A DNA stretch of 64,000 nucleotides from a virus (lineage: Duplodnaviria; Caudoviricetes), in the IMG/VR virus record IMGVR_UViG_3300033463_000086, positions 12,349 through 76,348 of that record; one strand, 5' to 3'. Both the position numbers and the translations under genes were made by a program. Below the pieces are notes generated by a model. That model had not been told where the DNA came from. It was given only the letters and a program-made list of their open reading frames with translations, and made no database searches. Within the stretch, counting starts at the first letter, position 1, and the number at the start of each line of letters is the position of its first letter. Shown here one piece after another: positions 29,904 through 47,804 of the stretch.

Positions 29904-29904
29904 G

Positions 29905-31085: not shown

Positions 31086-31179
31086 CGTAAATGGCGATAC
31101 CGATAATCAGTTTTGCCATTTCTATCAAAAGTGTATCACGGGTTGTTTGTTTCATTGTTATCACCACCTCCAAGCTCAT
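30988..31179 (-). CDS. Hypothetical protein
   Basis: ORF track; GGAGGTG RBS before MKQTT. Confidence 0.5.
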   Translation of the reverse strand: MSLEVVITMKQTTRDTLLIEMAKLIIGIAIYGAGYGSDCEQLNDLREAINDAEEEHKMDYFDE

Positions 31180-31495: not shown

Positions 31496-31499
31496 TTTA

Positions 31500-31763: not shown

Positions 31764-32416
31764 AAGAAGTTATCAGGGTTAATGTACTCATCCCTTGAGT
31801 AGATGTAATCGTCAAGGTGCATACGGAAAGAGTATTCGTGTCCATGTGTGAATATAACACGACGGATGCCACGACCACTCCCAATCAATGACGCCTTAGC
31901 CAACAAATGTCCATCAAACTCAGAGGGCGGTTCGTAGATGCTGTACTGATGCCCATAAATACAACGGACACATGTATTGCCTACAACATCCACTAACATT
32001 CTGAACTTTTCCCGAAGAAGCCTGTATGACTGACACCTTGCGAACATATTACGACAGACACACTCGAACATCATGTCTTTATCGTCTTGAGATTCGTACT
32101 GTGTCATAGAGAAATCATCTTCAGGGTCTCCATATGTGAGAATCTTGCATAGGGGCCAGATGATATGGGCGAGGTTCAGTGGGATATTGTTGACATACAT
32201 AATAGGAACCACCATATCGAATGGTACGGTTCTCTTGCCGACTTTCTCATAGATAACCACAACCGCGTATCTTACATTGGTGGACGGGCTTTGAACTGAA
32301 CCACGATAAGCCAATGTAAGGTCGATTTGCGGAAAACAGAATGCAGAGAAAGGTATATGCCTCGACATACGCGACAAAAGCGTATCTGCAAACTTATCAT
32401 CAAAATCTGGAAGCAT
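31760..32416 (-). CDS. Hypothetical protein, paralog family A
   Basis: PDFDDKF, FCFPQIDLTLAYRG, TVPF. Confidence 0.7.
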   Translation of the reverse strand: MLPDFDDKFADTLLSRMSRHIPFSAFCFPQIDLTLAYRGSVQSPSTNVRYAVVVIYEKVGKRTVPFDMVVPIMYVNNIPLNLAHIIWPLCKILTYGDPEDDFSMTQYESQDDKDMMFECVCRNMFARCQSYRLLREKFRMLVDVVGNTCVRCIYGHQYSIYEPPSEFDGHLLAKASLIGSGRGIRRVIFTHGHEYSFRMHLDDYIYSRDEYINPDNFL

Positions 32417-32467
32417 AAGAAATCTCCATGAGGGGTGAGTTTATGTACCCACCCCTCTTACGTTATG

Positions 32468-33523: not shown

Positions 33524-33526
33524 AAC

Positions 33527-34624
33527 TTATACACCTTTCCTTTCGATAAGAGCGTTAGCCTTATCATAGTTGTGTTCTTTGATGAACGTCTTGAACGAAG
33601 CAAATGCAGTTCTCGGCGTTTCAATGATGAGTTGGTCGAGGCACTCCGTATGAATGTGATGAACCCAACGAACAAGAGCGTCAATGAGTTCCAAATCTTC
33701 ATACAGAGTATTGATGTTCGTTGTGCTTGCGAACATTCTGAACTCGATTGTGTACTGGCTCGAATGATAGTTGACGGCACTGTATCTGTCCATGTCGTCA
33801 ATGTTGTTCGAGAAACTGCTGAATGAGCCGTAACTGTAATACTCGGCATAATCATTTCCTTCACGCCGAGCAAGTTGTTCAAAGCGTTCACTGTTCTCAT
33901 TCACAAACCAACCGACCATGTACCATTCGAGGCTGTCCATGAACTGTTTGGAGGCGTGGATATGAAGTCCGCACTTGTAATGAGCATGAAGACCCCAATC
34001 ACGAAGAAGGGCGAGAATATTGTTCCATTTCTTGAAGTCAGTACGATACTCTTCAAGCGTATGCGGAGTGCTGATGAGTTCAAACCCATAGTCGGGAATC
34101 GAACCGTCATGCTCAAGATAGAACATATCCTTGCTGCTGTCGTAGTTTTCGTCATCCTCGTCAGTGGCATTACGAAGAGGCTTCAATGCTTCGACACAGG
34201 AAAGCATATCATCTTCGCCAGTGTCGCCAGTTTCCAACTCAAAGCCGAACCGAAGTTTACCATCATCGGGAACTTGGTATTCGTGGGAATGATAACCACC
34301 GATTCCACCACGATGCCGTCTGATTTCATTGATGCACGAGTGACAGCACATCTGACCACGGTAGCGAGTGAGGTTATCCATAGTGAAATCGTTGCCGCAG
34401 TGTTCGCATTGTGCGCCGACGCTCTCGTAGCACTGGTCGCATACGTGCCTATCACCACGATTCATAGAATGGCGGTTGGTTGCCCTGTACCACTCGTGAC
34501 ATTCATCGCACTGGAAGTAGAGGATTGAATGGCACTGTTCGCAGAAAGCACCATCGTCATTGACGTAAGATGCTTGCCGTCCACAAATGATGCAGACGTC
34601 GGGGTTTTCATTTTCTTCCGGCAT
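33527..34624 (-). CDS. Putative amidoligase (COOH-NH2 ligase type) with N-terminal zinc-ribbon repeats, copy B
   Basis: FGFELE, HDGSI, GFELISTP, CGLHIH, RYSAVN, TIEFRMF. Confidence 0.88.
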   Translation of the reverse strand: MPEENENPDVCIICGRQASYVNDDGAFCEQCHSILYFQCDECHEWYRATNRHSMNRGDRHVCDQCYESVGAQCEHCGNDFTMDNLTRYRGQMCCHSCINEIRRHRGGIGGYHSHEYQVPDDGKLRFGFELETGDTGEDDMLSCVEALKPLRNATDEDDENYDSSKDMFYLEHDGSIPDYGFELISTPHTLEEYRTDFKKWNNILALLRDWGLHAHYKCGLHIHASKQFMDSLEWYMVGWFVNENSERFEQLARREGNDYAEYYSYGSFSSFSNNIDDMDRYSAVNYHSSQYTIEFRMFASTTNINTLYEDLELIDALVRWVHHIHTECLDQLIIETPRTAFASFKTFIKEHNYDKANALIERKGV

Positions 34625-34781
34625 AAGACTTGCCCTTTCTCTGTTTGGTTTTGAAGATGGACTTCATTTTGTTGTTGAACTCGATGCGCTTGAGGGCATT
34701 ACGCTCTCGCACATACTCGGCTTTTGTCATTACGGACACACTTCGCCCATAATTGACAACGACAAGTTCGGGACGTTCCAT
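34608..34781 (-). CDS. Small basic hypothetical protein
   Basis: TAATG coupling to GGCT stop; MERPELV... Confidence 0.5.
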   Translation of the reverse strand: MERPELVVVNYGRSVSVMTKAEYVRERNALKRIEFNNKMKSIFKTKQRKGKSYAGRK

Positions 34782-35182
34782 TACACATACTCCTGTGGGT
34801 AGTGTTGTTTGTGGTATGCTCTCCAATCCCCATTCGGAATAAGGATGAAAGAGCGTTGAATCTGTTCTCGCTTGAAGAAATAGACGAATCCATGAACATT
34901 GGCTCCGTCAAACGTCTTAGCAGTTATGAGCTTTCGCCCATACAGCTTCGGATAGCCCTCAAGCCTGTCAATGTCGGGAAGGGATGTTGGAGGCAGAATC
35001 ATAAGTTCCGCCTTAATCTGCGTATGTCCCTCAAGAACCAATGCAGGGAAGTTATACCTTGTATCGAACAATGTGCCGAAGAAGGTAACAGGAACGATAC
35101 CCATGCAATTACGGCAAAGGTAATGATTCCTCTGCCCCGACATAAGGGTTCCATACGTGATAATCTGTACTGAATCAGGCAT
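34781..35182 (-). CDS. Gamma-glutamylcyclotransferase (AIG2-like)
   Basis: ITYGTLM...NH, IDRLEGYPKLY. Confidence 0.88.
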   Translation of the reverse strand: MPDSVQIITYGTLMSGQRNHYLCRNCMGIVPVTFFGTLFDTRYNFPALVLEGHTQIKAELMILPPTSLPDIDRLEGYPKLYGRKLITAKTFDGANVHGFVYFFKREQIQRSFILIPNGDWRAYHKQHYPQEYV

Positions 35183-36335
35183 AACGACACCTCTTCATGG
35201 CTTCTTCGAGCTGTTCATTGACGCGACGATAGAGATAATTTGCATTTTTATCCCCATTCGTCTCTTCCATGCGCTTCTTATTCCAGTTGAACCAGTCATA
35301 AACTGCGCGGCGAGGCATTTCAACCATATGCAGATTACCGAGAGGCATTGTGTCCTTTGCCCACTCATACAATCCCTGAACAATGGCAAGATGTCCGAAG
35401 AAATCATCCGCACAATCCACAGGGCAGAAAATGCGAAACTCACAGGTAACATGAGTTGACGTGCAGAAAGACAATGCCGCATAGTGCGTATCGTCCTGTC
35501 TTTCCCAGAAACCCTCACGGTAATCATCGTCAGGGTCTCCATATTCAACCCAATCATTTTCTTCACGACCAGCCAGTTCCTCGAACAATGACTGATTCTT
35601 AGAAATGAACCACTGCAACGCTCTCCACGTCAATGCCGGAAGAGCCGCCTTAGTGATATGCACATGGAAACCACAGGAATAGTGCGGCTTCATATCGTGG
35701 TTGCTGAACGTATCATACAAGTTCTCAACCATGTTTTTGTGAGCAAGCCACCAGTCCCATGTGTAAGGATTGGAAATGGTCTCGAACCCATAGTCACGGA
35801 TAGAACCATCTTCTTCCATGACAAAGAAACGACCGAAGTCATTTTCAATCTCACCCGAACAACGGCGCATATCCTCGGAACAGGCATCGCCCATTTCGAG
35901 TTCCACACCGAGGTAAGGCATATCACCTTTTTTGAGTCTGGGGCAGTCATAATCGTGGGAATGATAACCACCAATGTCACCTGCCCTGTGTTGCTCGGAC
36001 TGATGCTCTTCGTAGCAATCATAGCAGAAGTCCTCTTCACAGTCCTCGCAGTAATAAATGTCGTCACTATGGACAACTTCACCGCAACGAGCGCAGGTGT
36101 AGTAATGGTCATCGTAGCACTCACGACACACGCAATCATAGCTGCCAATCTGCATCATTTCAGCAGAGGCAACGACATTACCGCAATCAGGACAAACGCA
36201 GAAATCGTCATCTTTGTTGTCCTCATAGCAGGTGTCACAGAGATGGTAGGTTTTCCCATCAATTTCGACAATGTGGATTTCATCATCGTCGCAGTTGTCC
36301 AAAGAGCAACCGCAGTCATAATAGTCGCAACGCAT
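35175..36335 (-). CDS. Putative amidoligase with N-terminal zinc-ribbon repeats, copy A
   Basis: LGVELE, EDGSI, GFETISNP, CGFHVH, TCEFRIF. Confidence 0.88.
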   Translation of the reverse strand: MRCDYYDCGCSLDNCDDDEIHIVEIDGKTYHLCDTCYEDNKDDDFCVCPDCGNVVASAEMMQIGSYDCVCRECYDDHYYTCARCGEVVHSDDIYYCEDCEEDFCYDCYEEHQSEQHRAGDIGGYHSHDYDCPRLKKGDMPYLGVELEMGDACSEDMRRCSGEIENDFGRFFVMEEDGSIRDYGFETISNPYTWDWWLAHKNMVENLYDTFSNHDMKPHYSCGFHVHITKAALPALTWRALQWFISKNQSLFEELAGREENDWVEYGDPDDDYREGFWERQDDTHYAALSFCTSTHVTCEFRIFCPVDCADDFFGHLAIVQGLYEWAKDTMPLGNLHMVEMPRRAVYDWFNWNKKRMEETNGDKNANYLYRRVNEQLEEAMKRCRYA

Positions 36336-36553
36336 AATCGTTACTCCATTATTTAGTTTGTTTTGGTTTGAAATGAACTTATCGACAAAGGTTTATGCCG
36401 ATAACGGTTTAGTTCCATATCCTCCTAAATATGGAAACGTTGGTTGATACTCTAACTTAAATCATAAAGCACCGAATGAACCGATGCCTTATGATTTAGA
36501 TTAGAATGTAGGCGGCAGTAATGAAACCACCGCCCATATCCAAGAACCGAATG

Positions 36554-37039
36554 TCAGAACTTATCATTGTCAACATAATGAAAGTTCAAATTGATGTCGC
36601 CCTGATTATGCAACCACTCATATGCAGGGTGGAAATCATACAGACTGGTCACATAAACGCGATTGTGAGCCACCTGAAACACATAGTTGCACAAAGGAGC
36701 CTCAACATATGCATCAGCCCACTGGTCATTGAATAAATCACGACCAACGACCTCTTCCATTACCAACGTGCCAGCCCATTTCAGATACAGGAAATTGTCA
36801 TGCATTAATGTAACTGCCGCCGTGTCCCTGATGTAGTCCACAAGTTCTTTCAGCGTCATTGTGAAACCTGCGCGAATGACGATAAACTCGCGTTCGCCAT
36901 ACTTATCCGTAAGATTGAACTTATGGATGCCGAACTCTTGACCCTCTCCGTATGTGGCTGAGGTGGAATGTACGTAAGACATTTTAATATCCACAATGTC
37001 GAACGTACCATCTTCGTTGATTTCGATTTCGTGTTGCAT
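36554..37039 (-). CDS. Hypothetical early protein
   Basis: AGGAG RBS. Confidence 0.7.
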   Translation of the reverse strand: MQHEIEINEDGTFDIVDIKMSYVHSTSATYGEGQEFGIHKFNLTDKYGEREFIVIRAGFTMTLKELVDYIRDTAAVTLMHDNFLYLKWAGTLVMEEVVGRDLFNDQWADAYVEAPLCNYVFQVAHNRVYVTSLYDFHPAYEWLHNQGDINLNFHYVDNDKF

Positions 37040-37057
37040 AGTTTTCTCCTTATGCGG

Positions 37058-37507
37058 TTAAATCCATGTTTCAAAGAGGTCATCGAAATTGAACATAATA
37101 GGAACCGTCAGCAAGTCATTCTTCTTGCCGTAGTCCATAATGCGCTTCAGTTCGCTGTCCTCAACATTGAATTTATTGTACGAAATGTGCTTGGCGACTG
37201 TGTATGCCCTTGACGTGAACCAGACATCCTTATGGTTAGTCGGTATCACCATTCTCTCCAACAGTTCCTTACAGAAAATGTCGTTGGGGATAGTGCTGAA
37301 TGTGCCTTTCTTTGCATGTTCGAGGAAATACCACAAATGTTCACGGTATGGATTTGCGAACAATGTCACCACAGTTATCGGTCTTTCCCATATTTGGAAC
37401 CGATGAACGTATCTTCTTTCCACATAGTCTTTTATCTTGACCGGGAATGAAGACGTTCCGTGATAGACCCCATAACCATTTGAGGTCAGTTGGAAGTCGT
37501 GTTGCAT
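37058..37507 (-). CDS. Hypothetical early protein
   Basis: AGGAG RBS. Confidence 0.7.
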   Translation of the reverse strand: MQHDFQLTSNGYGVYHGTSSFPVKIKDYVERRYVHRFQIWERPITVVTLFANPYREHLWYFLEHAKKGTFSTIPNDIFCKELLERMVIPTNHKDVWFTSRAYTVAKHISYNKFNVEDSELKRIMDYGKKNDLLTVPIMFNFDDLFETWI

Positions 37508-37525
37508 TAGATGTCTCCTTAATGA

Positions 37526-38005
37526 TTACGAAAGCGAACCAGCCCATACATACTGGCATGGGTGATTTTTCATATCTTTGAGGACGATGGGCTGAACCCA
37601 TTTGGAGTTGCCTTTATCCCATATTGTACGATAAGCGTTTACCATGATGAAACAGATAAGACGCCATTCTTCAGAAGTCATCCATCCATAAGCCCTCTCA
37701 TCCCAATCCAAATGAAACAGATGATAGGCAACGTACAAGCACATAAGAACCTCGACTTCATGACCTATGCAACCAGTCATATCGTAGTGTTTCTCATACG
37801 CAAGCCGGAAGAAGTAGTATAAGTCATTCGCAGTGGGTTTCTTTCCTTTCGGATGCGGAACTACGATTGATGTTTTGTAGACACCACGATAGACCACGGC
37901 ATAACTGGTGAATGTTATTGCCTTTTTGTACTTTTTCGGATAATTGCTCAACTTTGCATTACAGTCAAGCACATCCTCCAATTCTATGAAGTTTGTGTTT
38001 CTCAT
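37526..38005 (-). CDS. Hypothetical early protein
   Basis: ORF track. Confidence 0.65.
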   Translation of the reverse strand: MRNTNFIELEDVLDCNAKLSNYPKKYKKAITFTSYAVVYRGVYKTSIVVPHPKGKKPTANDLYYFFRLAYEKHYDMTGCIGHEVEVLMCLYVAYHLFHLDWDERAYGWMTSEEWRLICFIMVNAYRTIWDKGNSKWVQPIVLKDMKNHPCQYVWAGSLS

Positions 38006-38190
38006 TGAATACCGCCTTTCGTTTTCTTAATGCGGTCAATCGTATCGGCAATCCTGTCAGAAATGCCGAAGTCGTGAACATCTTCTTCAATCAGCATAAC
38101 GAGGAAGATGCAGGTGAAGAGAATTGGGATAGCGAAAATGACCAATTCCACAAATTGTTCAATGCTCATTTTGTTTCCTTTCTTGTTTGG

Positions 38191-38469
38191 TTAGATGTTG
38201 AAGAAACGCTCCATCGGGTCGAAGCCATAGTAATCTTCGACATACGAATCAGCAATTTCAGGTTCTTTCTGAATGTTCTTAACGAACTCAACAGCCTCAT
38301 CTATGGTGTTAAAGTAGTGTTGCCGTAATTCAATGTCATGGTCGTTGCAGGTGATATAAATGGAGTAAGAGAGTTCAGGGTCAAGTTCATAAATCTCAAA
38401 CTCTGCACCATTTTTAGTGATTGTCTTGACGAGTTTCATAATAACTCCAAAAGTAAAGCCCTGCCGCAT
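38191..38469 (-). CDS. Hypothetical early protein (true start probably MKLVKT)
   Basis: GGAG RBS. Confidence 0.6.
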   Translation of the reverse strand: MRQGFTFGVIMKLVKTITKNGAEFEIYELDPELSYSIYITCNDHDIELRQHYFNTIDEAVEFVKNIQKEPEIADSYVEDYYGFDPMERFFNI

Positions 38470-38485
38470 TTCTTTGGCAGGGCTT
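38456..38485. terminator. 10-bp hairpin (terminator or processing site)
   Basis: AAGCCCTGCC-N10-GGCAGGGCTT. Confidence 0.45.
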
Positions 38486-38504
38486 GTGTGGTTGTTTGAA
38501 TGAC

Positions 38505-38690
38505 TTACTCGTTACGCCATTCATCGAACTTGAAGTCGGGGTTCGCATCGCGTACAAGGTGCGACTCGTCCCACGCATTCTGAAGCCGATTGCGGAGGTC
38601 ATTCATGTTGATGGATTCGAGAAACTCCATCACATCGCAAACGGTCTGTTCTGCGTTTCTCATGGTTTCTTTGACGGTTTTGTTGCCCAT
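38505..38690 (-). CDS. Hypothetical early protein
   Basis: AAAGG RBS; first ORF after the long leader. Confidence 0.65.
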   Translation of the reverse strand: MGNKTVKETMRNAEQTVCDVMEFLESINMNDLRNRLQNAWDESHLVRDANPDFKFDEWRNE

Positions 38691-38719
38691 TTTAGTACCT
38701 TTCCTGTTTGGTGTTTATG

Positions 38720-39395
38720 GACTGATTAGAATGCACCGGATTGTGCATTCTTGACAATCTACAAACCCCCGTAGGGAATGGCGTATAGGGCTTATCTGCC
38801 GCAGCATGCTTATCTATACGCCATTGTTGTTGCAATATTTAGGACTCAATATTGCCATTCGTTAATCTATAGGGCGGAAGTATCATTGAATAATTATTAC
38901 GTTTTGATTTTAAGTTTATTGAATAATTTATCTTTGATACATTTTAATTTTTGTCGCTATTGTCAATCATAGCGGAGAATTAGGACTTATTCATCGGGGT
39001 TTGTGCCGAAAGTAATGGGCTGCCTTTCTCAATGCCGCTGATATTGTTGTATATCACCCATTCTCTCCTACTTTGCATCGCTTATTAGTGTAGTTTCTAT
39101 GCCCGTGTTCGCGTGTAAGTATTCTTGCATTTAACTATATTTCTCACTGACCGTATGCCAAAAGGTCTGCGATAGCATTTTGGACTTATGCCTTATCGCA
39201 GAGATAGGACAGAGTACATTCCATCACTATTCTGCTTTATGGGCTGACGGCTAACCCCCTACCGAAATGCAAGACCGTAGTCCTATTGCATACCGTAGTA
39301 TACTGCATTCGGAAATCGGGTATTACATAGGAATCCCCGTCAACCGAATGTCAAAGAACACCACCTGGGCGGCGAATGAACGCCCCGTCCCACAG
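38720..39395 (-). ncRNA. Candidate structured leader / ncRNA
   Basis: No ORF of gene size; at least 7 hairpins; starts just below promoter 39401-39433. Confidence 0.45.
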
Positions 39396-39400
39396 GATAC

Positions 39401-39603
39401 TATAATATAGCACTTCATTAGCCAAAGTCAAGCCCTCATTTTGACAATTTTCCGAATGTTTTTGAAATTTTTTATCGAAAGTTATCATTGTTACTTAACG
39501 TAAATGCTTAACGTATCTTTAACGTTACCTGTCTTCATAAATAAGGTATAGCACGTCATAATCAAAAGTCAAGCCCTCATTTTGACAATTTTCCGAATGT
39601 TTT
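39401..39603 (-). promoter_or_regulatory. Tandem early promoters sharing a 39-bp duplicated -35/UP block
   Basis: aaagtcaagccctcattttgacaattttccgaatgtttt at 39424-39462 and 39565-39603. Confidence 0.7.
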
Positions 39604-39720
39604 ACCCTATACGGAATCTTATCTACATTTGCGGTAAAACTCAAGCATTATCCGTATCGGCAGTGCATTAGTTATCCGCATTTGTATGAAGATTGTGTAT
39701 ATGTAAAGTTATCCTGATTA

Positions 39721-39780
39721 TACCCTATCGGGACTATTTTAGCCATTTTATCCGATTTTATACCCTATCGGGACTATTTT
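39721..39780. repeat. 20-bp direct repeat
   Basis: TACCCTATCGGGACTATTTT at 39721 and 39761. Confidence 0.9.
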
Positions 39781-39838
39781 ATCTATGGTCTAACATTAAT
39801 CATATGGTTGTTAATGACGGTTTATCGAATGTAATAAA

Positions 39839-40179
39839 AAGTTAGTCCAGCCTAAGTCATTCAAAGCGCCACTATTAGAGTTTACATTTGTTTTTTACTC
39901 GTTTTTAATGATAGGTGTGTTGGTGTAATAGTGATGCGGTGTACTATAACAGTAATACACCTATGGTATAAATTTAATTAATACTGAGTGTCATTTTGGT
40001 GGCAGTTTGTATTTATGGTGGCACTGTGTCATTATAAAAACAGGGTGTAAGTGTTCTCCGCCCGACACCAGCATTTCATAACTTAGGCTGGACTAACTTA
40101 TGTAAATAACTGACACTCAAATATTTACAACTTACATAACAATAAATACACATAAATGACTTAGGCTCAACTAACTTTT
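39839..40179. repeat. 19-bp inverted repeat plus a third imperfect copy
   Basis: AAGTTAGTCCAGCCTAAGT 39839-39857; reverse complement 40081-40099; 21/23 copy 40157-40179. Confidence 0.85.
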
Positions 40180-40600
40180 GAAGTATGTTATGTTTGAATA
40201 TACCGACAAAGGCATAATCATAAAATGAAATGCAACGACGAATGAAATGCCAGCCCTCATTTATAACAATATTATATAGTGTGCTAAACTGTTGCCTATG
40301 CCGATGGTTATAACGATGAACATTCTCAATTCCATTCAATGAAATGTCACCATTATTATCTCATCCACATAACGACAACGACAACGATGAAGATGAACAT
40401 TGAAAACGATAGCGAATGAAATGCCAATGCCGACGTTTACATTCCATAACGACAAAGACAACGATGAAGATGCCGACAGATAAAGCCATACCGACGATTA
40501 TGCCGATGACTATATACATTCACATTCGTTCGTATGACCTAATAGTTCGTTCATAAAAATATCTTTAATAGAAAAATAATAATTTGCAAAAAGGCGGCAA

Positions 40601-40632
40601 AAAATAAAAAGGCCGCCGCGAGAGCGGCGGCC
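40601..40632 (-). terminator. Intrinsic terminator
   Basis: GGCCGCCGC-TCTC-GCGGCGGCC followed by TTTTTATTTT on the minus strand. Confidence 0.8.
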
Positions 40633-40644
40633 TTGTCGGCCTTG

Positions 40645-40908
40645 TTAGAGCTGGCCTTTTGTCAATCTCGGCAAGATTGTATTTTCAAAGATAAAGCTCG
40701 CAATCTCGGCGGCTAAATTGTCGGCCTCGGCTTCGGCCTCAGTTTTTGCCGCTTCGGCCTCGGCTTCGGCTATCGCCTCGGCTTCGGCCTTTGACAAAAG
40801 ATAGATAGTTAAATCTAACTCTTGTTTCAACTCTTCGAGCTTATCTTCGAGCTTGTCTTTGTGACGTCTAAGAGTAGAGATTCTTTGTGATAACTTGTCG
40901 TTTTTCAC
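40645..40908 (-). CDS. Coiled-coil protein with EAEA repeats, GTG start
   Basis: AAAGGA RBS, GTG start, no internal Met. Confidence 0.65.
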   Translation of the reverse strand: MKNDKLSQRISTLRRHKDKLEDKLEELKQELDLTIYLLSKAEAEAIAEAEAEAAKTEAEAEADNLAAEIASFIFENTILPRLTKGQL

Positions 40909-40945
40909 TTTTGTTTTTCCTTTGTTTTAAGTTGTTTGTTTTTGT

Positions 40946-41720
40946 GCTATTGTGCTTTATTGTGCCGCTTGTCGGTTAGGTTTTTTGTTTGTTGTTGTTT
41001 GTTGTTGGAGTTGTTTACTTTGCGGCGGCCTTTTCGGCCTTGTCGGCGGCTTCGGCGGCCTTTTCAATAGCCGCTTTTAAGCTGTTGTTGTATTTTTCTA
41101 TTGTTGCGGCTTCGGAGAGCGGCACAATAACAACAGCAAAGCCGAGGAGGCGGAGAATAAGAATAAACCTTTTCCAGTAGCCGTACTGACCGCAACTTGT
41201 TGCACCTGAGTCGATAAGCTGTTTTTGTGTATAGTCAACAGCGAGGGCCGAAGAGAGAGCAACTGCGGCTTGCCGCAAGTCGTTTTTTGTGACTTGTTTG
41301 TCTTTTGCGGCCTTTTCGGCCTTGTCGGCTTCGGCCTTTGTGCCTTCAGAAGCTTTCTTTGCGGCTTCGGCCTTTGCCTTTGCTTCGGCGGCGGCTTTGT
41401 CGGCCTTTGCGGCTTCGGCCTTTGCGGCCTTTGCGGCTTCGGCGGCTTTGCTTGCCTTGTCAATCTTACCGCTTGAGAGCAACTCAAGAGCGGCGGCGGC
41501 CTTGTCGGCGGCTTCGGCCTTTGCGGCTTCGGCCTTGACTTCGGCGGCCTTTGCTACTAACTCAAGAGCGGCGGCGGCCTTGTCGGCTTCGGCGGCCTTT
41601 GCTTTGAGCTTTTCGAGAGCGGAGAGCGGAGAGAGAGAACGAACGAACGAAAAGATTGTTTCAAACGTAATCACTTTTTGACTGCACTTTCTAACAAGCG
41701 GCACAATAAAGCACAATAGC
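40946..41720. repeat. Perfect 27-bp inverted repeat pair enclosing an ORF
   Basis: GCTATTGTGCTTTATTGTGCCGCTTGT 40946-40972 and exact reverse complement 41694-41720. Confidence 0.92.
41015..41674 (-). CDS. Ala/Lys/Glu-rich repetitive protein (histone H1/TolA-like composition); start uncertain (GTG 41674 or upstream)
   Basis: AAEADKAAAALEL repeats; open frame over 650 nt; no Met codon. Confidence 0.55.
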   Translation of the reverse strand: MITFETIFSFVRSLSPLSALEKLKAKAAEADKAAAALELVAKAAEVKAEAAKAEAADKAAAALELLSSGKIDKASKAAEAAKAAKAEAAKADKAAAEAKAKAEAAKKASEGTKAEADKAEKAAKDKQVTKNDLRQAAVALSSALAVDYTQKQLIDSGATSCGQYGYWKRFILILRLLGFAVVIVPLSEAATIEKYNNSLKAAIEKAAEAADKAEKAAAK

Positions 41721-42238
41721 GAGAGAGTTGTATATTTTTCAAAGAGCAACAGCCGAAAAACAAGCGGCTTCACAAAAGAAAAGATTTTTAGAGTTATTTT
41801 ATACAGTTTTTATTGAATAAATTATAACGTTTACACAATACACTATAAATAAGCACGTTACAGAATACAGCAATAAACTAATAGTTCGGCATTCCTAATT
41901 ACTTTGCCGCAAAGAAAAAGTCTTAACCTATTGATAATCAAAGAGTTGCACCAAATTAGATTTAGTAAGGCGGCTGGGACCCTATAGAGTACCTCACACA
42001 TACAATCCACATTTTCAAAACCCATCAATAAAATCACTTACTGCAATTCCCTATAAATAAGTAAATTACAGTATAGGATTATTTGCACCAGTTTATAAAT
42101 CAAGGATATATGTATTAAACTGTCAAAGAACAAAACAAATTGACTTATGACAAAACGCTACTGAGAACTTTGCAATAATGAGCGTAAAGTTTGCATTATC
42201 GTCTACACTTATTGATATTTATAGACACTTTGGCGCAT

Positions 42239-42339
42239 AACTGGTACGAAAAATGTGCCAAATAACTGCAAAACTGGTTGGAAAAATGTGCCAAAGTGCC
42301 ATTTAAGGGTAATATTTGCACTTTGGATTGCACTTTGGA
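42239..42339. repeat. Iteron-like direct and inverted repeats
   Basis: GAAAAATGTGCCAAA x2 (33-bp period, each preceded by AACTGGT); TTGCACTTTGGA x2 tandem; CCAAAGTGC/GCACTTTGG inverted. Confidence 0.8.
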
Positions 42340-42609
42340 ATACTTGCTTCAAATACATCAAATATGACGCAATTCTTTATAAAATACGCTCGAAAATGCT
42401 ATATTTGATTGATTGTACGTTTGAAATTTAGTTGACATGTTGACCTAATTTCTAACAAAACAGCTATAATGATATAAAATTATGCACACAGAGGTAATGA
42501 CAACCATATGATTAATGTCTGTTTTTGGATTAATGTCTGTATAATAAAAAGACACGTACAGAAGCGGCAACTAATGTACGTGTCAAAGCAGAGGAGCCAA
42601 GATATGCGA

Positions 42610-42813
42610 TTAAGAATGTTTTTGTTTCAGTTCATAAAGAAGAATGGTATATGCGATAATTTCTTCAATGTACTTATATAGCCAGCGTTTATCGTCATCA
42701 TCAAGTTCAAATGGAATACGATTTATGAGTAATTTCTTTTTGAGTAGGTGGTTTTCATGTTTAAGTCGTGTGTTTTCTTGAATGTAGTATTGTTCATTCA
42801 TAGCTAATCTCAA
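42610..42813 (-). CDS. Hypothetical protein (true start probably MNEQYY)
   Basis: ORF coupled to the polymerase-like gene. Confidence 0.5.
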   Translation of the reverse strand: MRLAMNEQYYIQENTRLKHENHLLKKKLLINRIPFELDDDDKRWLYKYIEEIIAYTILLYELKQKHS

Positions 42814-44023
42814 TGTTATGGCGTGTAAGATTATGGTAGCAGTTTCTCATAAGGGTAATGACAGAGCTAACATCGGATTCACGGCAAATACAGGAATCGT
42901 GGACAGGAATGATTGGGATATTAATTGATTTGGCAAGTTCAAGGATAGAAAGCATCAGTTCGGAATCGGCGTTTTGAAGTCTGAGACCAAAGTTATCGTC
43001 AGCAAAGAAATGTTCACGGATAGCAGAATGACGTTCAAGCATTTTGGATATAGCAAGTTCAACATCAAGGTAGTTGTATTTGTTTTTGACGTAAGGATTT
43101 TCAAGGATGGCGTTAATGGCTTGATTTCGTGTTGTGCAGTTAAGAGAGATAAGGATGACCTTCTTGGCAAACTTACGGTCCGGTACGAAGTCATAAGCAT
43201 CGCCAACAAGTTCTTTTCCGTTAAGGTTATAGGCAAGATTGATATGGAGGCAGTGGAAATCCGGTTCGACTGTTGCTTCTCCGTTGATTTCTATGGTCTT
43301 GCGTTCAGATTTTTTGAGGGTCTGATATGTAAAACCGTTGCCATCAGTACAGGTAGCATACAATCTTCCACCATGTTCCCAATCCTCAGTATAGACAGAT
43401 TGAAGGTTGATGCGGAGGCGTTTCTTTTCGTTGTTCTTAATGCAGGTAACAAGGACAGAATCAGAGTAATAAGCGTTCAGGGATTCAATAGAGTGTTTTT
43501 TCGCTAAGATGTTGGTAGGTAAAGAGTTAAAATCAAGTTTAATGTCGTGTTTGTTCTTTTTAAGGCGTATGGTATTGGTGTGTTTGGTGTTGAAAATGTG
43601 TTTATGAGCTTTGTTCTTGGTATTGAAAATGAAAGTTAAGGCTTCAGTGGCAAAATATCTGGAACGGTAATTGTTTACATTGGAAATCAAGTCTTTATGC
43701 CCCTTGATTTCTTTAAGATAGCCACGATTGACAAGGAAATCAAGGACTGCATTGAGCTTGCGGACCGAGATTTTCTGTTCCTTTAAGGTGGTTGTCTTGT
43801 TGTATGCCGCCCAAACGTGACAATCTCTGGACACGTAGAAGCCAGTCCCGCACATTGACGTATAAAGAGCGTTGCACAGAACCATTGTAAGGTACTTCTT
43901 GGCGTCAACAGTATTAATTTCCTTGGCAAACCCATCAATAAGTGGTTCGACTTCCGGGAAATTGAGTTCTGCGATAACGTCAATCGGTTTGGCTTGTCTG
44001 ATTTGAGTTGTTTTCGTGTCCAT
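42794..44023 (-). CDS. Stand-alone superfamily-A polymerase-like protein (TV-Pol-like) with N-terminal winged-helix-like region
   Basis: GGRLY, motif A EPDFHCLH, motif B RKFAK, GLRLQNADS, motif C PVHDS; no exonuclease. Confidence 0.72.
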   Translation of the reverse strand: MDTKTTQIRQAKPIDVIAELNFPEVEPLIDGFAKEINTVDAKKYLTMVLCNALYTSMCGTGFYVSRDCHVWAAYNKTTTLKEQKISVRKLNAVLDFLVNRGYLKEIKGHKDLISNVNNYRSRYFATEALTFIFNTKNKAHKHIFNTKHTNTIRLKKNKHDIKLDFNSLPTNILAKKHSIESLNAYYSDSVLVTCIKNNEKKRLRINLQSVYTEDWEHGGRLYATCTDGNGFTYQTLKKSERKTIEINGEATVEPDFHCLHINLAYNLNGKELVGDAYDFVPDRKFAKKVILISLNCTTRNQAINAILENPYVKNKYNYLDVELAISKMLERHSAIREHFFADDNFGLRLQNADSELMLSILELAKSINIPIIPVHDSCICRESDVSSVITLMRNCYHNLTRHNIEISYE

Positions 44024-44051
44024 AGGTTGCCTTTTTGTGTTTTACGAGATA

Positions 44052-44172
44052 TAATATAGCACCGTTTCCGAAAAAGTCAAGCGAAAAAGCAACATTTCTA
44101 CAAACTTTTTTCGATTTTCTTTTTCTTGATTTGGTGTAGTATCTAATATAGCACAGAATCTCCAAAAGTCAA
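44052..44172 (-). promoter_or_regulatory. Two tandem promoters for the TV-Pol-like gene
   Basis: TTGACT...TGCTATATT at 44052-44083 and 44145-44172. Confidence 0.65.
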
Positions 44173-44451
44173 ATCTAAATCAAAGAAATAAATTAGAATA
44201 TTTGATATATAATTGTCGAATCCTACATATACTATTTACCATATACGCACTACAAGTCACAACCTCTTCATTCTCAGCTACTTACAAAAACACCCTCAAT
44301 TTCTGCTTATTTTACCTATTTACATTGATTTATGAGCAGGTTTTAGACGCATAGATATTACCGTTCGGGCATATTTTCGGTTTTCATTCGGTAAAATTTC
44401 AAAAATGTTACCGTTCGGGAATAAAAAATAAAAATCGAAAAAAGTTATAAA

Positions 44452-44495
44452 TATGTTACTTTTTTGCTTGACTATTTGGTTATTGGTGTTATAAT
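44452..44495 (+). promoter_or_regulatory. Late-class promoter of the terL operon
   Basis: TATGTTACTTTT-N4-TTGACT-N16-TATAAT. Confidence 0.6.
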
Positions 44496-44521
44496 ATGTG
44501 TTGACTTACTATAGGAGGACT

Positions 44522-44875
44522 ATGCAAAACATACCAATCGAGTTGAACAGACACTATCGGCATGATGAGATTTCCATACAGTGCGGCGAATCTGCATACA
44601 CTTTGGCATTAGAAAACCAAGATGATATTCGCAGACGGTTTGTTCGTAATGAAAACGTCCACTGGTATGTAACTGCAAAGCGTCGTGGGAAAACTACATT
44701 GAGTTATATCGTTGTTCATAAGAAAGACATAACAACTTCTCAGAATGCAGCGAAGCGTACTATCTTTATGAGTTATGAAGAAGCACGTGAAATTGCTAAC
44801 GAACTTATGCACTCTGAAATGTTTTATGCGGTAAATATTGTCGAATGCTATGACAGGGTGGGTGTATGCCTCTAA
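44522..44875 (+). CDS. Hypothetical protein
   Basis: AGGAGG RBS; overlaps terL start. Confidence 0.7.
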   Translation: MQNIPIELNRHYRHDEISIQCGESAYTLALENQDDIRRRFVRNENVHWYVTAKRRGKTTLSYIVVHKKDITTSQNAAKRTIFMSYEEAREIANELMHSEMFYAVNIVECYDRVGVCL

Positions 44876-46164
44876 AACTGACAGAAAAACAAAAATATGG
44901 CATGAAATTGCTGAATGACCCTAAATACACGAGAATTGCGTTTACTGGTGGTTCTCGTGCTGGTAAGTCTGTTGCATTTATGGAATTTCTGATGCAGAGA
45001 GCATTTCAATTCCCCGGTTCCAGACAACTCATATGCCGCAGAGCCTTGGTTGATGCAAGACGAGCTATTTGGGAAGACACCTTGAAGAAATACTTGACGG
45101 ACCAGATACCGGAATCAGAATATACGTTAATGAAATCTGAAATGAGAGTGGTATTCAAGAATGGGTCCACGATTGAGTTGGGTGGTTTGGATGGCGAGGA
45201 CCAGTTGCAGAAAATACTTGGTACTGAGTATCTTACAATATGGCTGAATGAAGCTACTGAAATGAGGTTTGAGGCTGTTACGATTCTGATTACTCGTCTG
45301 GCTCAATCCGTAAAGGACACCACAGGCACGTTTACAGGGATAAATAAGCTGATTGCTGACGCTAACCCCTCTTCCCCTCGTAATTGGGTCAAAAAGTGGT
45401 TTATTGACAACGTAGACCCCACCACAAGACCGCCAAAGAAGCTGAAAGACGCAGATAAGTTCGTTCACCTGCACTTTACCCCCTACGATAACGCTGAAAA
45501 CCTACCTCCGGGATATATCGAACAGCTTGACGCACTTCCTTACGAGATGCGTGAAAGAATGCTCAAAGGTAACTGGATTGGTGGTGAAGGTCAGATATTC
45601 AAAGAGTTCAATGCGGAGAAACACTTGATTGCTCCGTTTGAAATACCGAAAACATGGGAAAAGGTGAGAGCCATTGACTTTGGTTATAATCACCCTTGCG
45701 CCATTTTATATACGGCTTACGATTATTCAACAGATACTATATATGTATATGATGAATATAAGGAATCCGGTAAGACGATTGATGAGATTGCAAATTACAT
45801 GAACAGCGTGGAGCAGAAGAGGCACGAGTTCTATGATTGCACGTGGTCAGACCATGACAAATCAGACCGCGCTTTCTTGGCAAAACATGATATTGTCACA
45901 AGGGCGGCGAAAAAGTCTGTTCTGGACGGTATCAATGCAGTACGTCAGCGTCTTTCTGAGATAAGCCCCAAGACACACAAACCTAAACTGCTCATATTCA
46001 ACAACTTAGATGCCCTGATTGACGAAATGTACAGTTATGAATGGCATCAGTCCGAATCGGAGGTTATGGATAAGGACGCACCAGTCAAAATCAATGACGA
46101 CCTTGTTGATACATTGAGATATATTGTTTATGGTAGAGATAAAGACAACGGAATTTCATTATAA
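44866..46164 (+). CDS. terL: Terminase large subunit (PBSX-like)
   Basis: TGGSRAGKS, WLNEATE, IDFGYNHP, DDLVDTLRY. Confidence 0.95.
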   Translation: MPLKLTEKQKYGMKLLNDPKYTRIAFTGGSRAGKSVAFMEFLMQRAFQFPGSRQLICRRALVDARRAIWEDTLKKYLTDQIPESEYTLMKSEMRVVFKNGSTIELGGLDGEDQLQKILGTEYLTIWLNEATEMRFEAVTILITRLAQSVKDTTGTFTGINKLIADANPSSPRNWVKKWFIDNVDPTTRPPKKLKDADKFVHLHFTPYDNAENLPPGYIEQLDALPYEMRERMLKGNWIGGEGQIFKEFNAEKHLIAPFEIPKTWEKVRAIDFGYNHPCAILYTAYDYSTDTIYVYDEYKESGKTIDEIANYMNSVEQKRHEFYDCTWSDHDKSDRAFLAKHDIVTRAAKKSVLDGINAVRQRLSEISPKTHKPKLLIFNNLDALIDEMYSYEWHQSESEVMDKDAPVKINDDLVDTLRYIVYGRDKDNGISL

Positions 46165-46175
46165 GGAATTTGAAT

Positions 46176-47804
46176 ATGGATAGCACAATTACTGTAAACA
46201 CATCCACTGACGCACAGACCCCGAACGAGCGAATCTTCAATCGGGTCAATGCCTATTATCTTGCAACAAGAAATACTTGGCGAAAAGCTCTAAAGGCATA
46301 TAATGGCGGCACGGGTTATTTGAAGGAAACGCTTAGGAAACACCCATCCGAAACAGATGAAGAGTTTCAGGAGCGTGTGGACAACTCTTATAATATCAAC
46401 TTAATCAAATACAGCGTCAAGGAGTTCGGCAATTACATTTTCTCCAAGACACCGCGAAGAAACAACGCGGATGAGGAAATCGTAAAGGACTTTGACCGCC
46501 AACAGAAGCAGGTGAACGAAGTTATGTGGAATCTGTTTCTGTATCATAACCTTTGCGGTCTCACTTGGGCTTTGGTTGATATGCCGCAATTCAGAGGCAA
46601 CGAGATTGACATAAAGACCAAACAGGAGCAGAAGATTCGTCCGTGGTGTAAGGTACTTTCTCCGCTTGCCGTTCCTGACTGGTGCTTTGATAAGTTCGGC
46701 AACCTTGAATGGATTATTATTGAGGAGTTCGTTGTTGAGAAGGACAATCCGTTTGCGGAACCTAAACTCATAAAGAAACGCACCCTCTATACGAAGACCT
46801 ACTATCAGGTGTTCTCTGCTATTATTGCCAGCCCGACTGCATCTGTAAAAAACAATGAGATTCGGGTAGGCAGAAAGATTAGGAACACTATTGGTGTGGT
46901 TCCTGTCATTCCGTATAGCGACCTTCTGTTTGATAAGGACTTCAATACTCCTGAGATTGCTGACATCCTTACAATTTATGATGCGATTCTGGCAGGTGAA
47001 TCCGAGCTTCTCACCAATATCCTGAAGCAGACATACGGACAGCTTGTACTTCCCATGTCTTCGCACTCTATGGTGAGCAAAGTCAAGGCTCGTCTGTCTG
47101 AGGCTGGAATCGACCCAAATTCTCCGGCTACCACAGCAATCATAACTCAGGAAATCGGTATGGAGCTGTCTCGTACAAAGGCAATTTACGAAGACGAGGG
47201 CGAGAAACAGATTGCCCGGTACATCCAACCAGCCGGAGCTACCACGGAATCCATTATCAACCACAATGACCGTCTGCTTGCTCTTACAATGAAGATTACA
47301 GGCTTCCTTGTCGGTGTTTCCACTACACAGCGTGAATCGGCAGACAGCAAGGCGGTGGATAATGCTTCTCTTGCCGCACAGCTCATACGTATTGCAAGCC
47401 GACTTGAGGAGCTTGAGCTGAATATCTGGAAGCTGTTCAATATGTTTGACCCATCTATTCAGGTCCCGAAGGTTGTTTACAGCAAGGACTATGATATTCA
47501 CGAGTTCAAGGCTGTTATTGCTGGTATTGTTGAGCTTGCAAACGTCAATGGCGGCGACAATTTCAAACAGCAGGTACTTAGGACTGCGGTTCATGCTATG
47601 GACAGTATTCATCGGATTCCTGACGAAACATACGAACAGATTATGGATGATATTGAAAACGGCAAAACATCCGCACTTCCTCCTACTTTTTCCGGCAAGG
47701 CAGATTACATTTCAGATACCTCCGGGAGCAGACCTGACAGTGTAAGAGCCAAGACGGATTATGACGGCTCGAACGAAAAAATAGGAAAAACTGAAAAAAT
47801 TTAA
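46176..47804 (+). CDS. Portal protein
   Basis: Follows terL; ~540 aa; YLKETLRKHPSE...RVDNS, DFDR, PLAVPDW, ESADSK. Confidence 0.85.
   Translation: MDSTITVNTSTDAQTPNERIFNRVNAYYLATRNTWRKALKAYNGGTGYLKETLRKHPSETDEEFQERVDNSYNINLIKYSVKEFGNYIFSKTPRRNNADEEIVKDFDRQQKQVNEVMWNLFLYHNLCGLTWALVDMPQFRGNEIDIKTKQEQKIRPWCKVLSPLAVPDWCFDKFGNLEWIIIEEFVVEKDNPFAEPKLIKKRTLYTKTYYQVFSAIIASPTASVKNNEIRVGRKIRNTIGVVPVIPYSDLLFDKDFNTPEIADILTIYDAILAGESELLTNILKQTYGQLVLPMSSHSMVSKVKARLSEAGIDPNSPATTAIITQEIGMELSRTKAIYEDEGEKQIARYIQPAGATTESIINHNDRLLALTMKITGFLVGVSTTQRESADSKAVDNASLAAQLIRIASRLEELELNIWKLFNMFDPSIQVPKVVYSKDYDIHEFKAVIAGIVELANVNGGDNFKQQVLRTAVHAMDSIHRIPDETYEQIMDDIENGKTSALPPTFSGKADYISDTSGSRPDSVRAKTDYDGSNEKIGKTEKI

Follow-up and report, generated by a model that had tools for sequence, protein, structure and literature searches.

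A hypervariable phage transcription unit devoid of ATG and CAT, possibly shaped by selection on duplex DNA

Motif avoidance in phages is normally the trace that host restriction leaves on the whole genome. The GGCC-poor Bacillus phages, which face BsuRI, and the GATC-free phages are examples of such restriction-site avoidance. PAMs and primase sites are words of 2-4 bp that are read on both strands. Among modification enzymes, relaxed-specificity prophage adenine methyltransferases also read very short words (Drozdz et al. 2012, PMC3299994). Here, a 64,000-nt stretch (the window) of the 76-kb genome of an uncultured phage was found to contain a motif loss confined to a single transcription unit. 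The word that has been erased there has three letters and takes in the universal start codon. Its loss is felt in amino-acid content, in the choice of start codons, at synonymous sites and in promoter DNA. A literature search for ATG-devoid or AUG-less phage regions found none.

The segment from 40553 to 41889 (1337 nt) contains no ATG and no CAT and is bounded by CATs at 40552 and 41890, in a window that holds 1203 ATG and 1310 CAT trinucleotides. An earlier note, made by reading the letters, had reported this absence for 40555-41889 together with about three TGG/CCA and one GGG/CCC, and the counts bear it out (TGG 2, CCA 1, GGG 1, CCC 0). The few dozen ATG/CAT that it expected from base composition come to 43 when computed. 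The resulting gap of 1338 nt, compared with 285 nt for the next longest ATG/CAT gap, is the longest of any strand-symmetric trinucleotide in the genome. Multiplied by word density, the gap scores 51.6; CCA/TGG comes second with 21, also at this locus. Windows of 1300 nt across the rest of the genome have observed-to-expected ratios (O/E) for ATG/CAT of 0.81-1.79.

Further null models lowered the expectation without bringing it to zero. An order-1 Markov model predicted 18 ATG+CAT (0/1000 simulations gave zero), and shuffles within blocks of 15-50 nt predicted 22-32, with a minimum of 9 over 5000 shuffles. Codon permutation, which holds the amino-acid sequence and the codon usage fixed, predicted 5.1 in gene 1 (P0 = 0.001) and 2.2-2.8 in gene 2 (P0 ~0.03). 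Dinucleotide shuffles of the three non-coding pieces gave P0 values of 0.09, 0.48 and 0.001, the last belonging to the 215-nt piece with the leader and the promoter. The codon-aware and dinucleotide nulls combined predict ~15 occurrences, with a joint P of ~1e-9 uncorrected and ~1e-6 once corrected for 32 words x 57 windows, where the permutation null assumes an independence that the in-frame repeats violate. The absence of ATG/CAT from 40553-41889 is not chance. The earlier view that protein composition alone is insufficient was thus upheld, and the Markov or codon-aware null that had been named as its possible refutation failed to explain the depletion. A mutational origin was rejected: C-to-T changes at CAT and A-to-G changes at ATG would be expected to enrich TAT/ATA or GTG/CAC, and neither enrichment is present.

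The limits of the gap match the promoter-to-terminator anatomy of a unit. As judged from its sequence elements, the segment is predicted to be one complete minus-strand transcription unit with a promoter, a 5' leader, two GTG-started genes and a terminator. The promoter-like site (41821-41849, minus strand) comprises TTTATA, a 17-nt spacer and TATAAT, with 10/12 matches to the consensus. Consensus matching also identified a second similar site at 42099-42070 and a plus-strand site at 40519-40546 that points into the unit. The predicted intrinsic terminator (40599-40634, minus strand) has an 11-bp G+C stem with two GGCC sites, followed by a T run. An 11-nt direct repeat, CTAATAGTTCG, has only two copies in the whole window, one at each edge of the ATG/CAT-free segment (plus strand; right copy at 41878-41888, the upstream edge, and left copy at 40539-40549, the downstream edge). 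An IS-like mobile element was rejected, as the direct repeats are accompanied by neither terminal inverted repeats nor a transposase. Searches for Rfam families across 38000-44600 found none near threshold. The unit has the packaging genes on one side and the early block on the other. Its distance from the genes for the small and large terminase is 2.6-4 kb, and its transcription runs away from them.

Gene 1 (41015-41674, minus strand) starts at GTG and encodes a protein of 219 aa, which contains no Met and no His and belongs to an orphan phage family. Its start was placed by homology to ATG-started relatives; public gene calls use a GTG further upstream, which lengthens the protein to 252 aa. 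A long helical hairpin of Ala/Lys/Glu precedes a conserved C-terminal domain, for which alignments of relatives gave the signature D..Q.A...Y(T/K/E)Q..L...G...GQ(F/Y)GY.(K/R)R. BLASTP detects the homologue in lineage L001 at E = 2e-19, and the family has 19 representatives among 1.8 billion proteins. Searches found no Pfam or PHROG family, no fold match and no usable match in the ESM Atlas; the AlphaFold model, although confident (pLDDT 86.8), matches only generic helical hairpins such as PspA/Vipp1, with E of at least 0.2. There are no prophage or host relatives in 185,579 species genomes and no close DNA relatives in the annotated phage collection, and IMG/VR holds one related contig only. 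Gene 2 (40645-40908, minus strand), also GTG-started, encodes a helical protein of 87 aa with Glu/Ala repeats. Its slot is occupied by other small genes in relatives, and homology matches of gene 2 and the neighbouring small genes are coiled-coil noise only. Both cassette proteins are helical, and they are Met-free, as the earlier note had anticipated from the missing ATG. Independence of Met-tRNA, which it also proposed, does not follow, since initiation at GTG likewise depends on the initiator tRNA. Some relatives have non-ATG starts as well (GTG twice in L005, TTG in L001).

Gene 1 is bracketed by a perfect 27-nt inverted repeat. The 5' arm (41694-41720, minus strand) ends 19 nt before the start codon, and the 3' arm (40946-40972, minus strand) lies 42 nt past the stop codon in an A/C-rich spacer. 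The bracket is present in 12/12 loci, with arms of 15-34 nt and 0-2 mismatches, and in every one of them the 5' arm ends 14-19 nt ahead of the start codon. The arm sequences differ between the lineages of these 12 loci, so that the pairing is kept by compensatory change, and a 28-bp stem is retained in both the MFE and the centroid folds of the 1341-nt transcript. The repeat most likely forms a long-range RNA stem, which may act as a processing or stabilising stalk of the RNase III type or as a translational control element. The 5' arm of several relatives can also pair with the spacer beside the start codon, which suggests translational control. DNA inversion is a less likely reading. The flanking inverted repeats of an inverton are present; however, no serine or tyrosine recombinase (PF00239, PF00589) was matched in the complete phage genome, although a host enzyme is possible. 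Among the listed contigs that carry the identical ORF, the order and orientation of genes 1 and 2 relative to each other are constant, and 12/12 related loci have the same orientation relative to the flanks. Inversion was rejected on the lack of a phage recombinase and the single orientation seen. The protein family of gene 1 is small and new, and in each of its loci the gene is surrounded by a covarying predicted long-range RNA stem, which is an unusual packaging of a phage mRNA.

Set against its relatives, the unit is a hypervariable, swappable cassette with a conserved anchor on either side (one at 41994-42035, the other running left from 40520). One relative has flanks of 93-97% identity, whereas the cassette itself is unalignable with it. 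The relatives carry a weaker form of the same ATG/CAT bias. That relatives might show ATG freely had been set out as grounds for refutation, and this is half the case: ATG is present, but across 11 related loci ATG/CAT has an O/E of only 0.16-0.69. Amino-acid composition accounts for most of the relatives' raw depletion. In the homologous cassettes of eight other lineages, synonymous and non-coding sites have about half the ATG and CAT expected. In 12 cassette genes from relatives, synonymous sites show sense ATG 26 times vs. 41 expected (Z = -4.7) and sense CAT 25 times vs. 43 expected (Z = -3.7), and the non-coding parts of these units have 19 ATG/CAT vs. 40 expected. The ratio of observed to permuted counts is 0.96-1.00 in other genes of the phage genome and 1.10-1.14 in early-block genes. 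The depletion in relatives holds in ordinary A+T-rich cassettes too; lineage L012 shows no synonymous ATG/CAT depletion. The words CCA, ACC and CTG/CAG have a synonymous-site depletion comparable to that of ATG/CAT. CC/GG is not avoided in the related loci (O/E 0.72-1.13), and few CC/GG occur in the window once GCC/GGC is set aside (O/E 0.14).

The reading that we prefer, with a probability of roughly 0.4, is that an immediate-early cassette is kept ATG/CAT-poor by selection at the DNA level, with the GGCC cluster as a by-product and the inverted repeat as an RNA stem. The depletion is strand-symmetric, extends into non-coding DNA and contrasts with a symmetric ATG/CAT enrichment of the early block; its likeliest cause is therefore selection acting at the DNA level. 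The same inference had been drawn in the earlier note, and it holds up in the relatives, whose synonymous and non-coding sites are depleted of the word on both strands. Selection on duplex DNA, and the kind of reader, are what we infer. The cassette would be poor in the duplex word ATG/CAT throughout its family, and in the present allele the word would have been lost entirely. At the protein level, the purge would account for Met-free proteins with almost no His; at the start codons, for GTG in place of ATG in both genes; at the codon level, for T-poor codons in the Ala/Lys/Glu repeats and for synonymous choices at codon junctions; and in non-coding DNA, for the clean promoter and leader. The cassette would thereby lie beyond the reach of a putative factor in the infected cell for which ATG/CAT, alone or as part of a short motif, is the word recognised on double-stranded DNA. 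Motif-specific modification of DNA is one candidate, and a DNA-binding protein that silences the early block is another. If the word is read at the DNA level, the cassette points to the reader.

The early gene block (25400-39700, both strands) is enriched 1.55x in ATG/CAT relative to the rest of the genome, and throughout these 14 kb ATG/CAT is the top enriched strand-symmetric trinucleotide. The enrichment comes from more Met and His, from CAT over CAC and from an excess at codon junctions. A different evolutionary origin of the block, rather than function, is a possible cause. Next to the cassette, a conserved array (40200-40552, no assigned strand) contains 34 ATG/CAT in ~350 nt, and its repeated words include ATGCCGA and AATGAAATGC. 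It is conceivable, if rather doubtful, that ATG/CAT, or for example AATG/CATT, is a genome-wide address on duplex DNA that was erased from one cassette, which alone would thus stay unmarked and expressed, or would escape a modification-dependent host defence. The address would be read by a motif-specific modification enzyme or by a coating or silencing protein, and it would be the word whose density is raised ~1.5-fold across the early block and which crowds the adjacent array. The only candidate 'writer' found is a divergent D12-class N6-adenine DNA methyltransferase (14882-15883, minus strand), whose presence is its sole link to ATG/CAT, and we know of no enzyme with ATG/CAT specificity. The phage encodes no C5 or N4/N6 (PF01555) methyltransferase. 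It has no thymidylate-synthase-like or TGT/DpdA-like gene either, and thus no candidates for a T-hypermodification or deazaguanine pathway. GATC (0 vs. 270 expected) and CTAG (0 vs. 81 expected) are absent from the genome, and CATG is mildly low genome-wide (269 vs. 372 expected).

The absence could also have arisen as a by-product, without selection on the word, from low-complexity helical proteins, T-poor codons ending in C or G and repeat expansion, with the remaining absences due to post hoc chance. The proteins are rich in Ala, Lys, Glu and Leu and lack Met, His, Pro and Trp, and weak GTG starts would hold their dose low. The genes contain in-frame repeats of 6-24 nt, and about half of the segment is T-poor on the sense strand, which excludes both ATG and CAT there on both strands. 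With codons taken into account, sense ATG is expected only 0.4 times in gene 1 and ~1.1 times in both genes together. Many other trinucleotides likewise reach their longest genome gap at this locus, and the segment was chosen by eye from 64 kb. However, sense CAT is expected 4.8 times in gene 1 (P = 0.002) and 1.5 times in gene 2, and the leader and promoter piece and the corrected joint P are hard to reconcile with chance. A low-complexity coding repeat failed as a full explanation when amino acids, codon usage and local composition were held fixed. The A+T-rich cassettes of relatives are depleted at synonymous and non-coding sites all the same, and no such effect is seen in other genes of the genome. 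A by-product without selection is thus unlikely.

Selection on RNA is an improbable alternative, in which any AUG, whichever transcript carried it, would give rise to long junk proteins, or the transcript would escape a word-specific endoribonuclease. The unit is perhaps strongly transcribed, maybe on both strands, given the plus-strand promoter-like site directed into it. In the repeat region all six frames run without stop codons, and across 41098-41681 both strands have ORFs of 77-130 codons in several frames; their products would be hydrophobic Ala/Phe/Ser or Pro/Lys/Arg runs. The A/C-rich unstructured spacers would favour spurious initiation, the start codons themselves are GTG or TTG in several lineages, and the covarying long-range stem indicates that the RNA is under structural selection. 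However, selection on RNA requires two avoidances, of AUG and of CAU, or else a hypothetical antisense transcript. The leader is full of stop codons, and avoidance of junk proteins cannot explain why it is clean. The symmetric enrichment in the early block is left unexplained as well, and no RNase emerged as a candidate.

It is very unlikely that the cassette is first-entering DNA that has lost a host motif (restriction, BREX or CRISPR PAM) or a primase triplet so as to survive until its products act. The position of the unit and its direction of transcription resemble those of early genes at a leading end, hypervariable small genes are typical of anti-defence loci, and the word has the length of a PAM or a primase site. 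However, the terminal repeat of the record is a 127-nt assembly overlap and hence marks no physical end. The unit is separated from the terminase genes by a 409-aa gene, for which a polymerase identity has no Pfam or PDB sequence support and whose ATG/CAT density is normal; as this gene would enter before the unit, the earlier suggestion of first-injected DNA is unsupported. A site-free 1.3 kb would leave the other 75 kb unprotected, the early-block enrichment of the same word argues against a host weapon, and the unit is loaded with GGCC, which is purged from the rest of the genome. The proposed purge of a restriction or BREX motif found no support either, as the three-base non-palindromic word matches no known motif of this kind; we know of no restriction, BREX or Type I motif of that form.

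The GGCC sites are best explained by the way the proteins are encoded. The window contains 27 GGCC, of which 25 lie at 40611-41594, as the earlier note had counted; its two occurrences elsewhere hold for the window, and in the whole genome outside the segment GGCC occurs 4 times vs. 142 expected. The two genes contain 22 of the 25 cassette sites, 21 of them at xxG-GCC codon junctions, and two more lie in the terminator stem. The cluster would be a by-product of Lys-Ala and Glu-Ala pairs written AAG-GCC and GAG-GCC and multiplied by in-frame expansion of 9-24-nt repeats, together with the two sites in the G+C stem of the terminator. The distant relative L014 has a similar cluster: its homologous unit contains 23 GGCC. 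Exchange with relatives that do not avoid GGCC, or evolution in the manner of such relatives, is the probable history of the cassette. Twenty-five GGCC sites in an otherwise GGCC-purged genome would be hard to square with this reading if the hosts restrict GGCC. That the sites are themselves functional, as a decoy, loading or cleavage site for a GGCC-reading enzyme, is most improbable: the reciprocal pattern of genome-wide purge and local concentration, and counts above the codon-permutation expectation in gene 1 (17 vs. 11.7, P = 0.012) and more strongly in its L014 homologue (15 vs. 6.3, P < 0.0003), speak for it, but GGCC is wholly missing from the homologous units of seven of the lineages examined and is avoided in those of L004 and L011, amplification of a single xxG-GCC unit could give the excess, the phage has no C5 methyltransferase, and a cleavable decoy would be lethal to the phage. 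The decoy array suggested in the earlier note is thus unnecessary.

The cassette resembles several known systems in part. RNase III stems around 16S and 23S rRNA and the sites in T7 early mRNA have a counterpart in the near-perfect duplex of 15-34 bp that flanks gene 1; however, the stem here brackets a protein-coding phage gene, and its cleavage is a conjecture by analogy. Phage DNA modification, such as 7-deazaguanine at short motifs or Mom, similarly involves very short words read across a phage genome, and the present phage has its D12-class methyltransferase although it is GATC-free. In contrast to those systems, modification at ATG/CAT is hypothetical for the present phage, and a literature search found no description of a modification-free island. 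The first-step-transfer region of T5 and the leading early region of T7-like phages are also small early units near the packaging genes, with small fast-evolving genes and their own promoter and terminator. In contrast, the gene between the present unit and the terminases is unpurged, the unit carries its 25 GGCC sites, and its order of entry and position at a genome end are conjectural. ACA-less mRNAs that escape MazF, and mRNAs without GGAG that escape T4 RegB, which cuts early mRNAs at this word, are parallels for a message that lacks a word of 3-4 nt and for the unusual codon and start choices that a missing word forces, whereas here the complement is missing to the same degree, and promoter DNA that is not transcribed is free of the word as well. 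Classical restriction-site avoidance is alike in that a short word is removed by selection, synonymous sites included, and the present genome shows its classical form for GATC, CTAG and GGCC. There the word is an enzyme site, either a palindrome of at least 4 bp or a defined asymmetric motif, and the avoidance extends over the whole genome. ATG/CAT, a non-palindromic word of 3 bp, conforms to neither: it is purged from one 1.3-kb unit, and in the rest of the genome its frequency is normal or raised.

The 64,000-nt window contains 1203 ATG and 1310 CAT trinucleotides, and a direct count found neither of them in 40553-41889, between the bordering CATs at 40552 and 41890. The gap spans 1338 nt, and the second-longest spans 285 nt. 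Scoring of the longest gap of each strand-symmetric trinucleotide times its density over the 76,348-bp genome gave 51.6 for ATG/CAT, followed by CCA/TGG with 21 at the same locus. The earlier note had reported this absence on either strand, along with about three TGG/CCA, one GGG/CCC and a concentration of GGCC sites in the segment; the counts bear it out on each, with 25 of the window's 27 GGCC sites located at 40611-41594.

The gap corresponds to an early transcription unit that is discrete and swappable. The genome record, of a tailed phage, is complete, with the large terminase (44866-46164) and the portal (46170-47804) on the plus strand and helicases and other early and replication genes on the minus strand. 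The ATG/CAT-free stretch is a single minus-strand transcription unit that runs from a predicted promoter through a predicted terminator. A promoter-like site (TTTATA-17-TATAAT, 41849-41821) and a leader precede gene 1 (41674-41015), an A/C-rich spacer of 106 nt, gene 2 (40908-40645) and a strong predicted terminator with a T run (40634-40609), all on the minus strand. Both genes start with GTG. The alignment of its VITFETIFSF with N termini of the METITFTLALVF type in the relatives fixes the start of gene 1; public gene calls place it at an upstream GTG, giving 252 aa. The 11-mer CTAATAGTTCG has only two copies in the window, at 40539-40549 and 41878-41888, exactly at both gap edges. The neighbouring minus-strand gene of 409 aa (42794-44023) has a sole match to PHROG 4756, of unknown function; its assignment as a minimal PolA/T7-RNAP-like polymerase was rejected, with no Pfam or PDB sequence match.

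From base composition, 43 ATG plus CAT are expected in the region, and from its order-1 Markov model, 18. Shuffling in 15-50-nt blocks, which preserves how G+C-rich repeats alternate with A+T-rich spacers, predicts 26-32, with a minimum of 9 over 5000 trials. When synonymous codons were permuted under a fixed amino-acid sequence and the codon usage of each gene, the expectation was 5.1 for gene 1 (zero-count P = 0.001) and 2.2-2.8 for gene 2 (zero-count P about 0.03). By strand, the expectation for both genes together is only about 1.1 for sense ATG and 6.3 for sense CAT (ATG when read on the plus strand). For the three non-coding pieces, shuffles that keep dinucleotide counts gave zero-count P values of 0.09, 0.48 and 0.001; the last belongs to the 215-nt promoter and leader. 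The failure of the codon-permutation and dinucleotide nulls to account for the gap agrees with the earlier proposal that protein composition is insufficient to explain the depletion. The product of the P values is ~1e-9, or ~1e-6 after correction for 32 words and ~57 windows; it leaves out the zero Met in 306 residues and the two GTG starts, and, for part of gene 1, in-frame repeats break the independence on which the permutation null relies. The ATG/CAT gap is genuine, and its statistics are robust.

Gene 1 encodes a member of a small orphan family, which has 19 representatives in a set of 1.8 billion proteins, and searches of Pfam, PHROG, PDB folds and the atlas returned no match. Members of the family consist of an N-terminal helix that is short and hydrophobic, a helical hairpin of Ala/Lys/Glu and a conserved C-terminal domain in which D, GQ, Y and R are invariant; the structure model of gene 1 is confident and all-helical. 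A perfect 27-nt inverted repeat (40946-40972 and 41694-41720) brackets gene 1. The bracket is found in all 12 loci examined, with arms of 15-34 nt and 0-2 mismatches; 5' arms end 14-19 nt ahead of the start codon, and 3' arms start 13-44 nt past the stop codon. The arm sequences vary by lineage, showing covariation, and the stem is present in the MFE as well as the centroid structure of the folded transcript. Since the phage genome encodes no serine or tyrosine recombinase and the gene 1 segment was seen in one orientation only, we prefer an RNA stem to DNA inversion, whether as a stalk for processing or stabilisation or as an element that controls translation. The 5' arm of several relatives (…TATTGTGTA…; L002 360-406, L005 199-246 and L014 1963-2012) has further complementarity to the spacer immediately ahead of the start codon (…TACACAAT…). 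It could thus pair either locally, beside the start codon, or with the 3' arm farther away, a possible translational switch. Another inverted repeat, also perfect and 19 nt long (ACATTAATCATATGGTTGT, 39793-39811 and 42500-42518, 2.7 kb apart), surrounds the cassette, the adjacent array and the flanking non-coding DNA.

The cassette is hypervariable. Comparison with L001, a 76-kb IMG/VR contig, showed 93-97% identity on both sides of the cassette and no BLASTN alignment over window positions 39981-42158. Anchors at 41994-42035 and leftwards from 40520 are conserved in several relatives. The gene 1 homologue of L001 has 41% identity (E = 2e-19) and an ATG start, and the small genes downstream of it differ. 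The identical 252-aa ORF is present in nine contigs of several samples, with gene 2 behind it in every case. Several public contigs with the identical cassette end at about 42420-42460, 590-690 nt upstream of that ORF, which suggests strain-variable or repeated sequence there; tandem GGTACGAAAAATGTGCCAAA-like repeats lie nearby at 42235-42295. In relatives, a hydrophobic peptide gene of 28-33 codons with the C terminus ...GL(Y/V)(Y/W)IANN directly follows gene 1 (L001 12667-12753, L005 781-867, L004 816-917 and L014 about 2626-2712), and the window allele lacks it. Asn-Asn-stop (AACAACTAA) ends many genes of these units.

Relative to 20-nt block shuffles, the ATG/CAT O/E of the homologous units is 0.00 in the window, 0.16 in L015, 0.18 in L008 and L011, 0.20 in L005, 0.29 in L001, 0.36 in L010, 0.39 in L002, 0.42 in L009, 0.57 in L004, 0.62 in L014 and 0.69 in L012, compared with 0.81-1.79 in 1300-nt windows of the rest of the window phage's genome. 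Much of this depletion reflects amino-acid composition, because the helical proteins are nearly devoid of Met, His, Pro and Trp. With the proteins fixed, 12 cassette genes from eight lineages, the window left out, contain 26 sense ATG vs. 41 expected (Z = -4.7) and 25 sense CAT vs. 43 expected (Z = -3.7); the observed-to-permuted ratio is 0.96-1.00 in the other genes of the window phage and 1.10-1.14 in its early-block genes. The relatives' non-coding leader and spacer pieces hold 19 ATG/CAT vs. 40.2 expected, and non-ATG starts recur (GTG twice in L005, TTG in L001). Sense CCA and ACC, as well as CTG/CAG, show comparable depletion, a search across the loci found no general depletion of CC/GG, and one lineage, L012, has no synonymous depletion.

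The neighbouring early block (25.4-39.7 kb, 14 kb) shows the opposite bias. Against the rest of the genome, no symmetric trinucleotide is more enriched there than ATG/CAT (1.55x, with the second at 1.27x); the enrichment affects both strands, and all ATG-containing tetramers are raised. Met reaches 3.3% vs. 2.6% elsewhere and His 3.35% vs. 2.1%, CAT:CAC is 68:45 vs. 77:82, and codon junctions show a 1.10-1.14 excess. Directly beside the cassette, an array (40200-40552) packs 34 ATG/CAT into about 350 nt, with the repeated words ATGCCGA/TCGGCAT, CGATGA and AATGAAATGC in a rhythm of roughly 6 nt. The array is conserved in relatives with unrelated adjacent cassettes (L001 13330-13700, L004 1300-1700 and L005 1370-1835) and may serve as an origin, for packaging or as a platform for protein binding. 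The genome has its cumulative GC-skew minimum nearby, at 40848.

Outside the segment, the whole genome has four GGCC vs. 142 expected, and GATC and CTAG are absent (270 and 81 expected); in the relatives' loci, GATC is likewise missing, and CTAG nearly always is. Gene 1 holds 17 GGCC, 16 at Lys-Ala as AAG|GCC and one at Ser-Ala, and gene 2 holds five (three Glu-Ala as GAG|GCC, one Lys-Ala and one GGC|CAG); two lie in the terminator stem and one just ahead of it. GCC makes up 42 of the 66 Ala codons here vs. 21% genome-wide. The region is made of degenerate in-frame repeats of 6-24 nt, including one 78-nt duplication, and codon permutation predicts 11.7 GGCC in gene 1, which the 17 seen exceed modestly (P = 0.012); repeat amplification can generate an excess of this kind. 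The unit of L014, a distant relative, has 23 GGCC, again as AAG|GCC, GAG|GCC and in the terminator, with three in its flanks vs. roughly four by our own base-composition estimate; seven other lineages have none in the unit, and L004 and L011 avoid it. The GGCC cluster is thus an allele-specific coding by-product, probably acquired from, or evolved like, lineages unexposed to GGCC restriction.

The ATG/CAT purge is very probably the result of selection, most likely at the level of DNA. Selection on the duplex is the simplest account because the bias is strand-symmetric, reaches promoter DNA and start codons, is limited to one transcription unit and is inverted in the neighbouring block. Selection on RNA, to avoid spurious starts in a stretch open in all six frames or to escape a sequence-specific RNase, is possible and requires a putative antisense transcript or two independent avoidances. 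The earlier suggestion of leading-end DNA purged of a restriction or PAM motif is weakened by the unpurged 409-aa gene between the unit and the terminase genes, the ATG/CAT enrichment of the early block, the heavy GGCC load of the unit and the terminal repeat of the record, a 127-nt assembly overlap. A search of the phage genome for thymidylate-synthase-like, TGT-like, C5 or PF01555 enzymes came back empty, and the only candidate writer, with no connection to ATG/CAT seen, is a divergent D12-class (Dam-family) N6-adenine DNA methyltransferase (14882-15883, minus strand; 48.8 bits to PF02086). It scores far under the Dam equivalog cut-off and, since the genome lacks GATC, probably has a specificity other than GATC or a target other than the phage.
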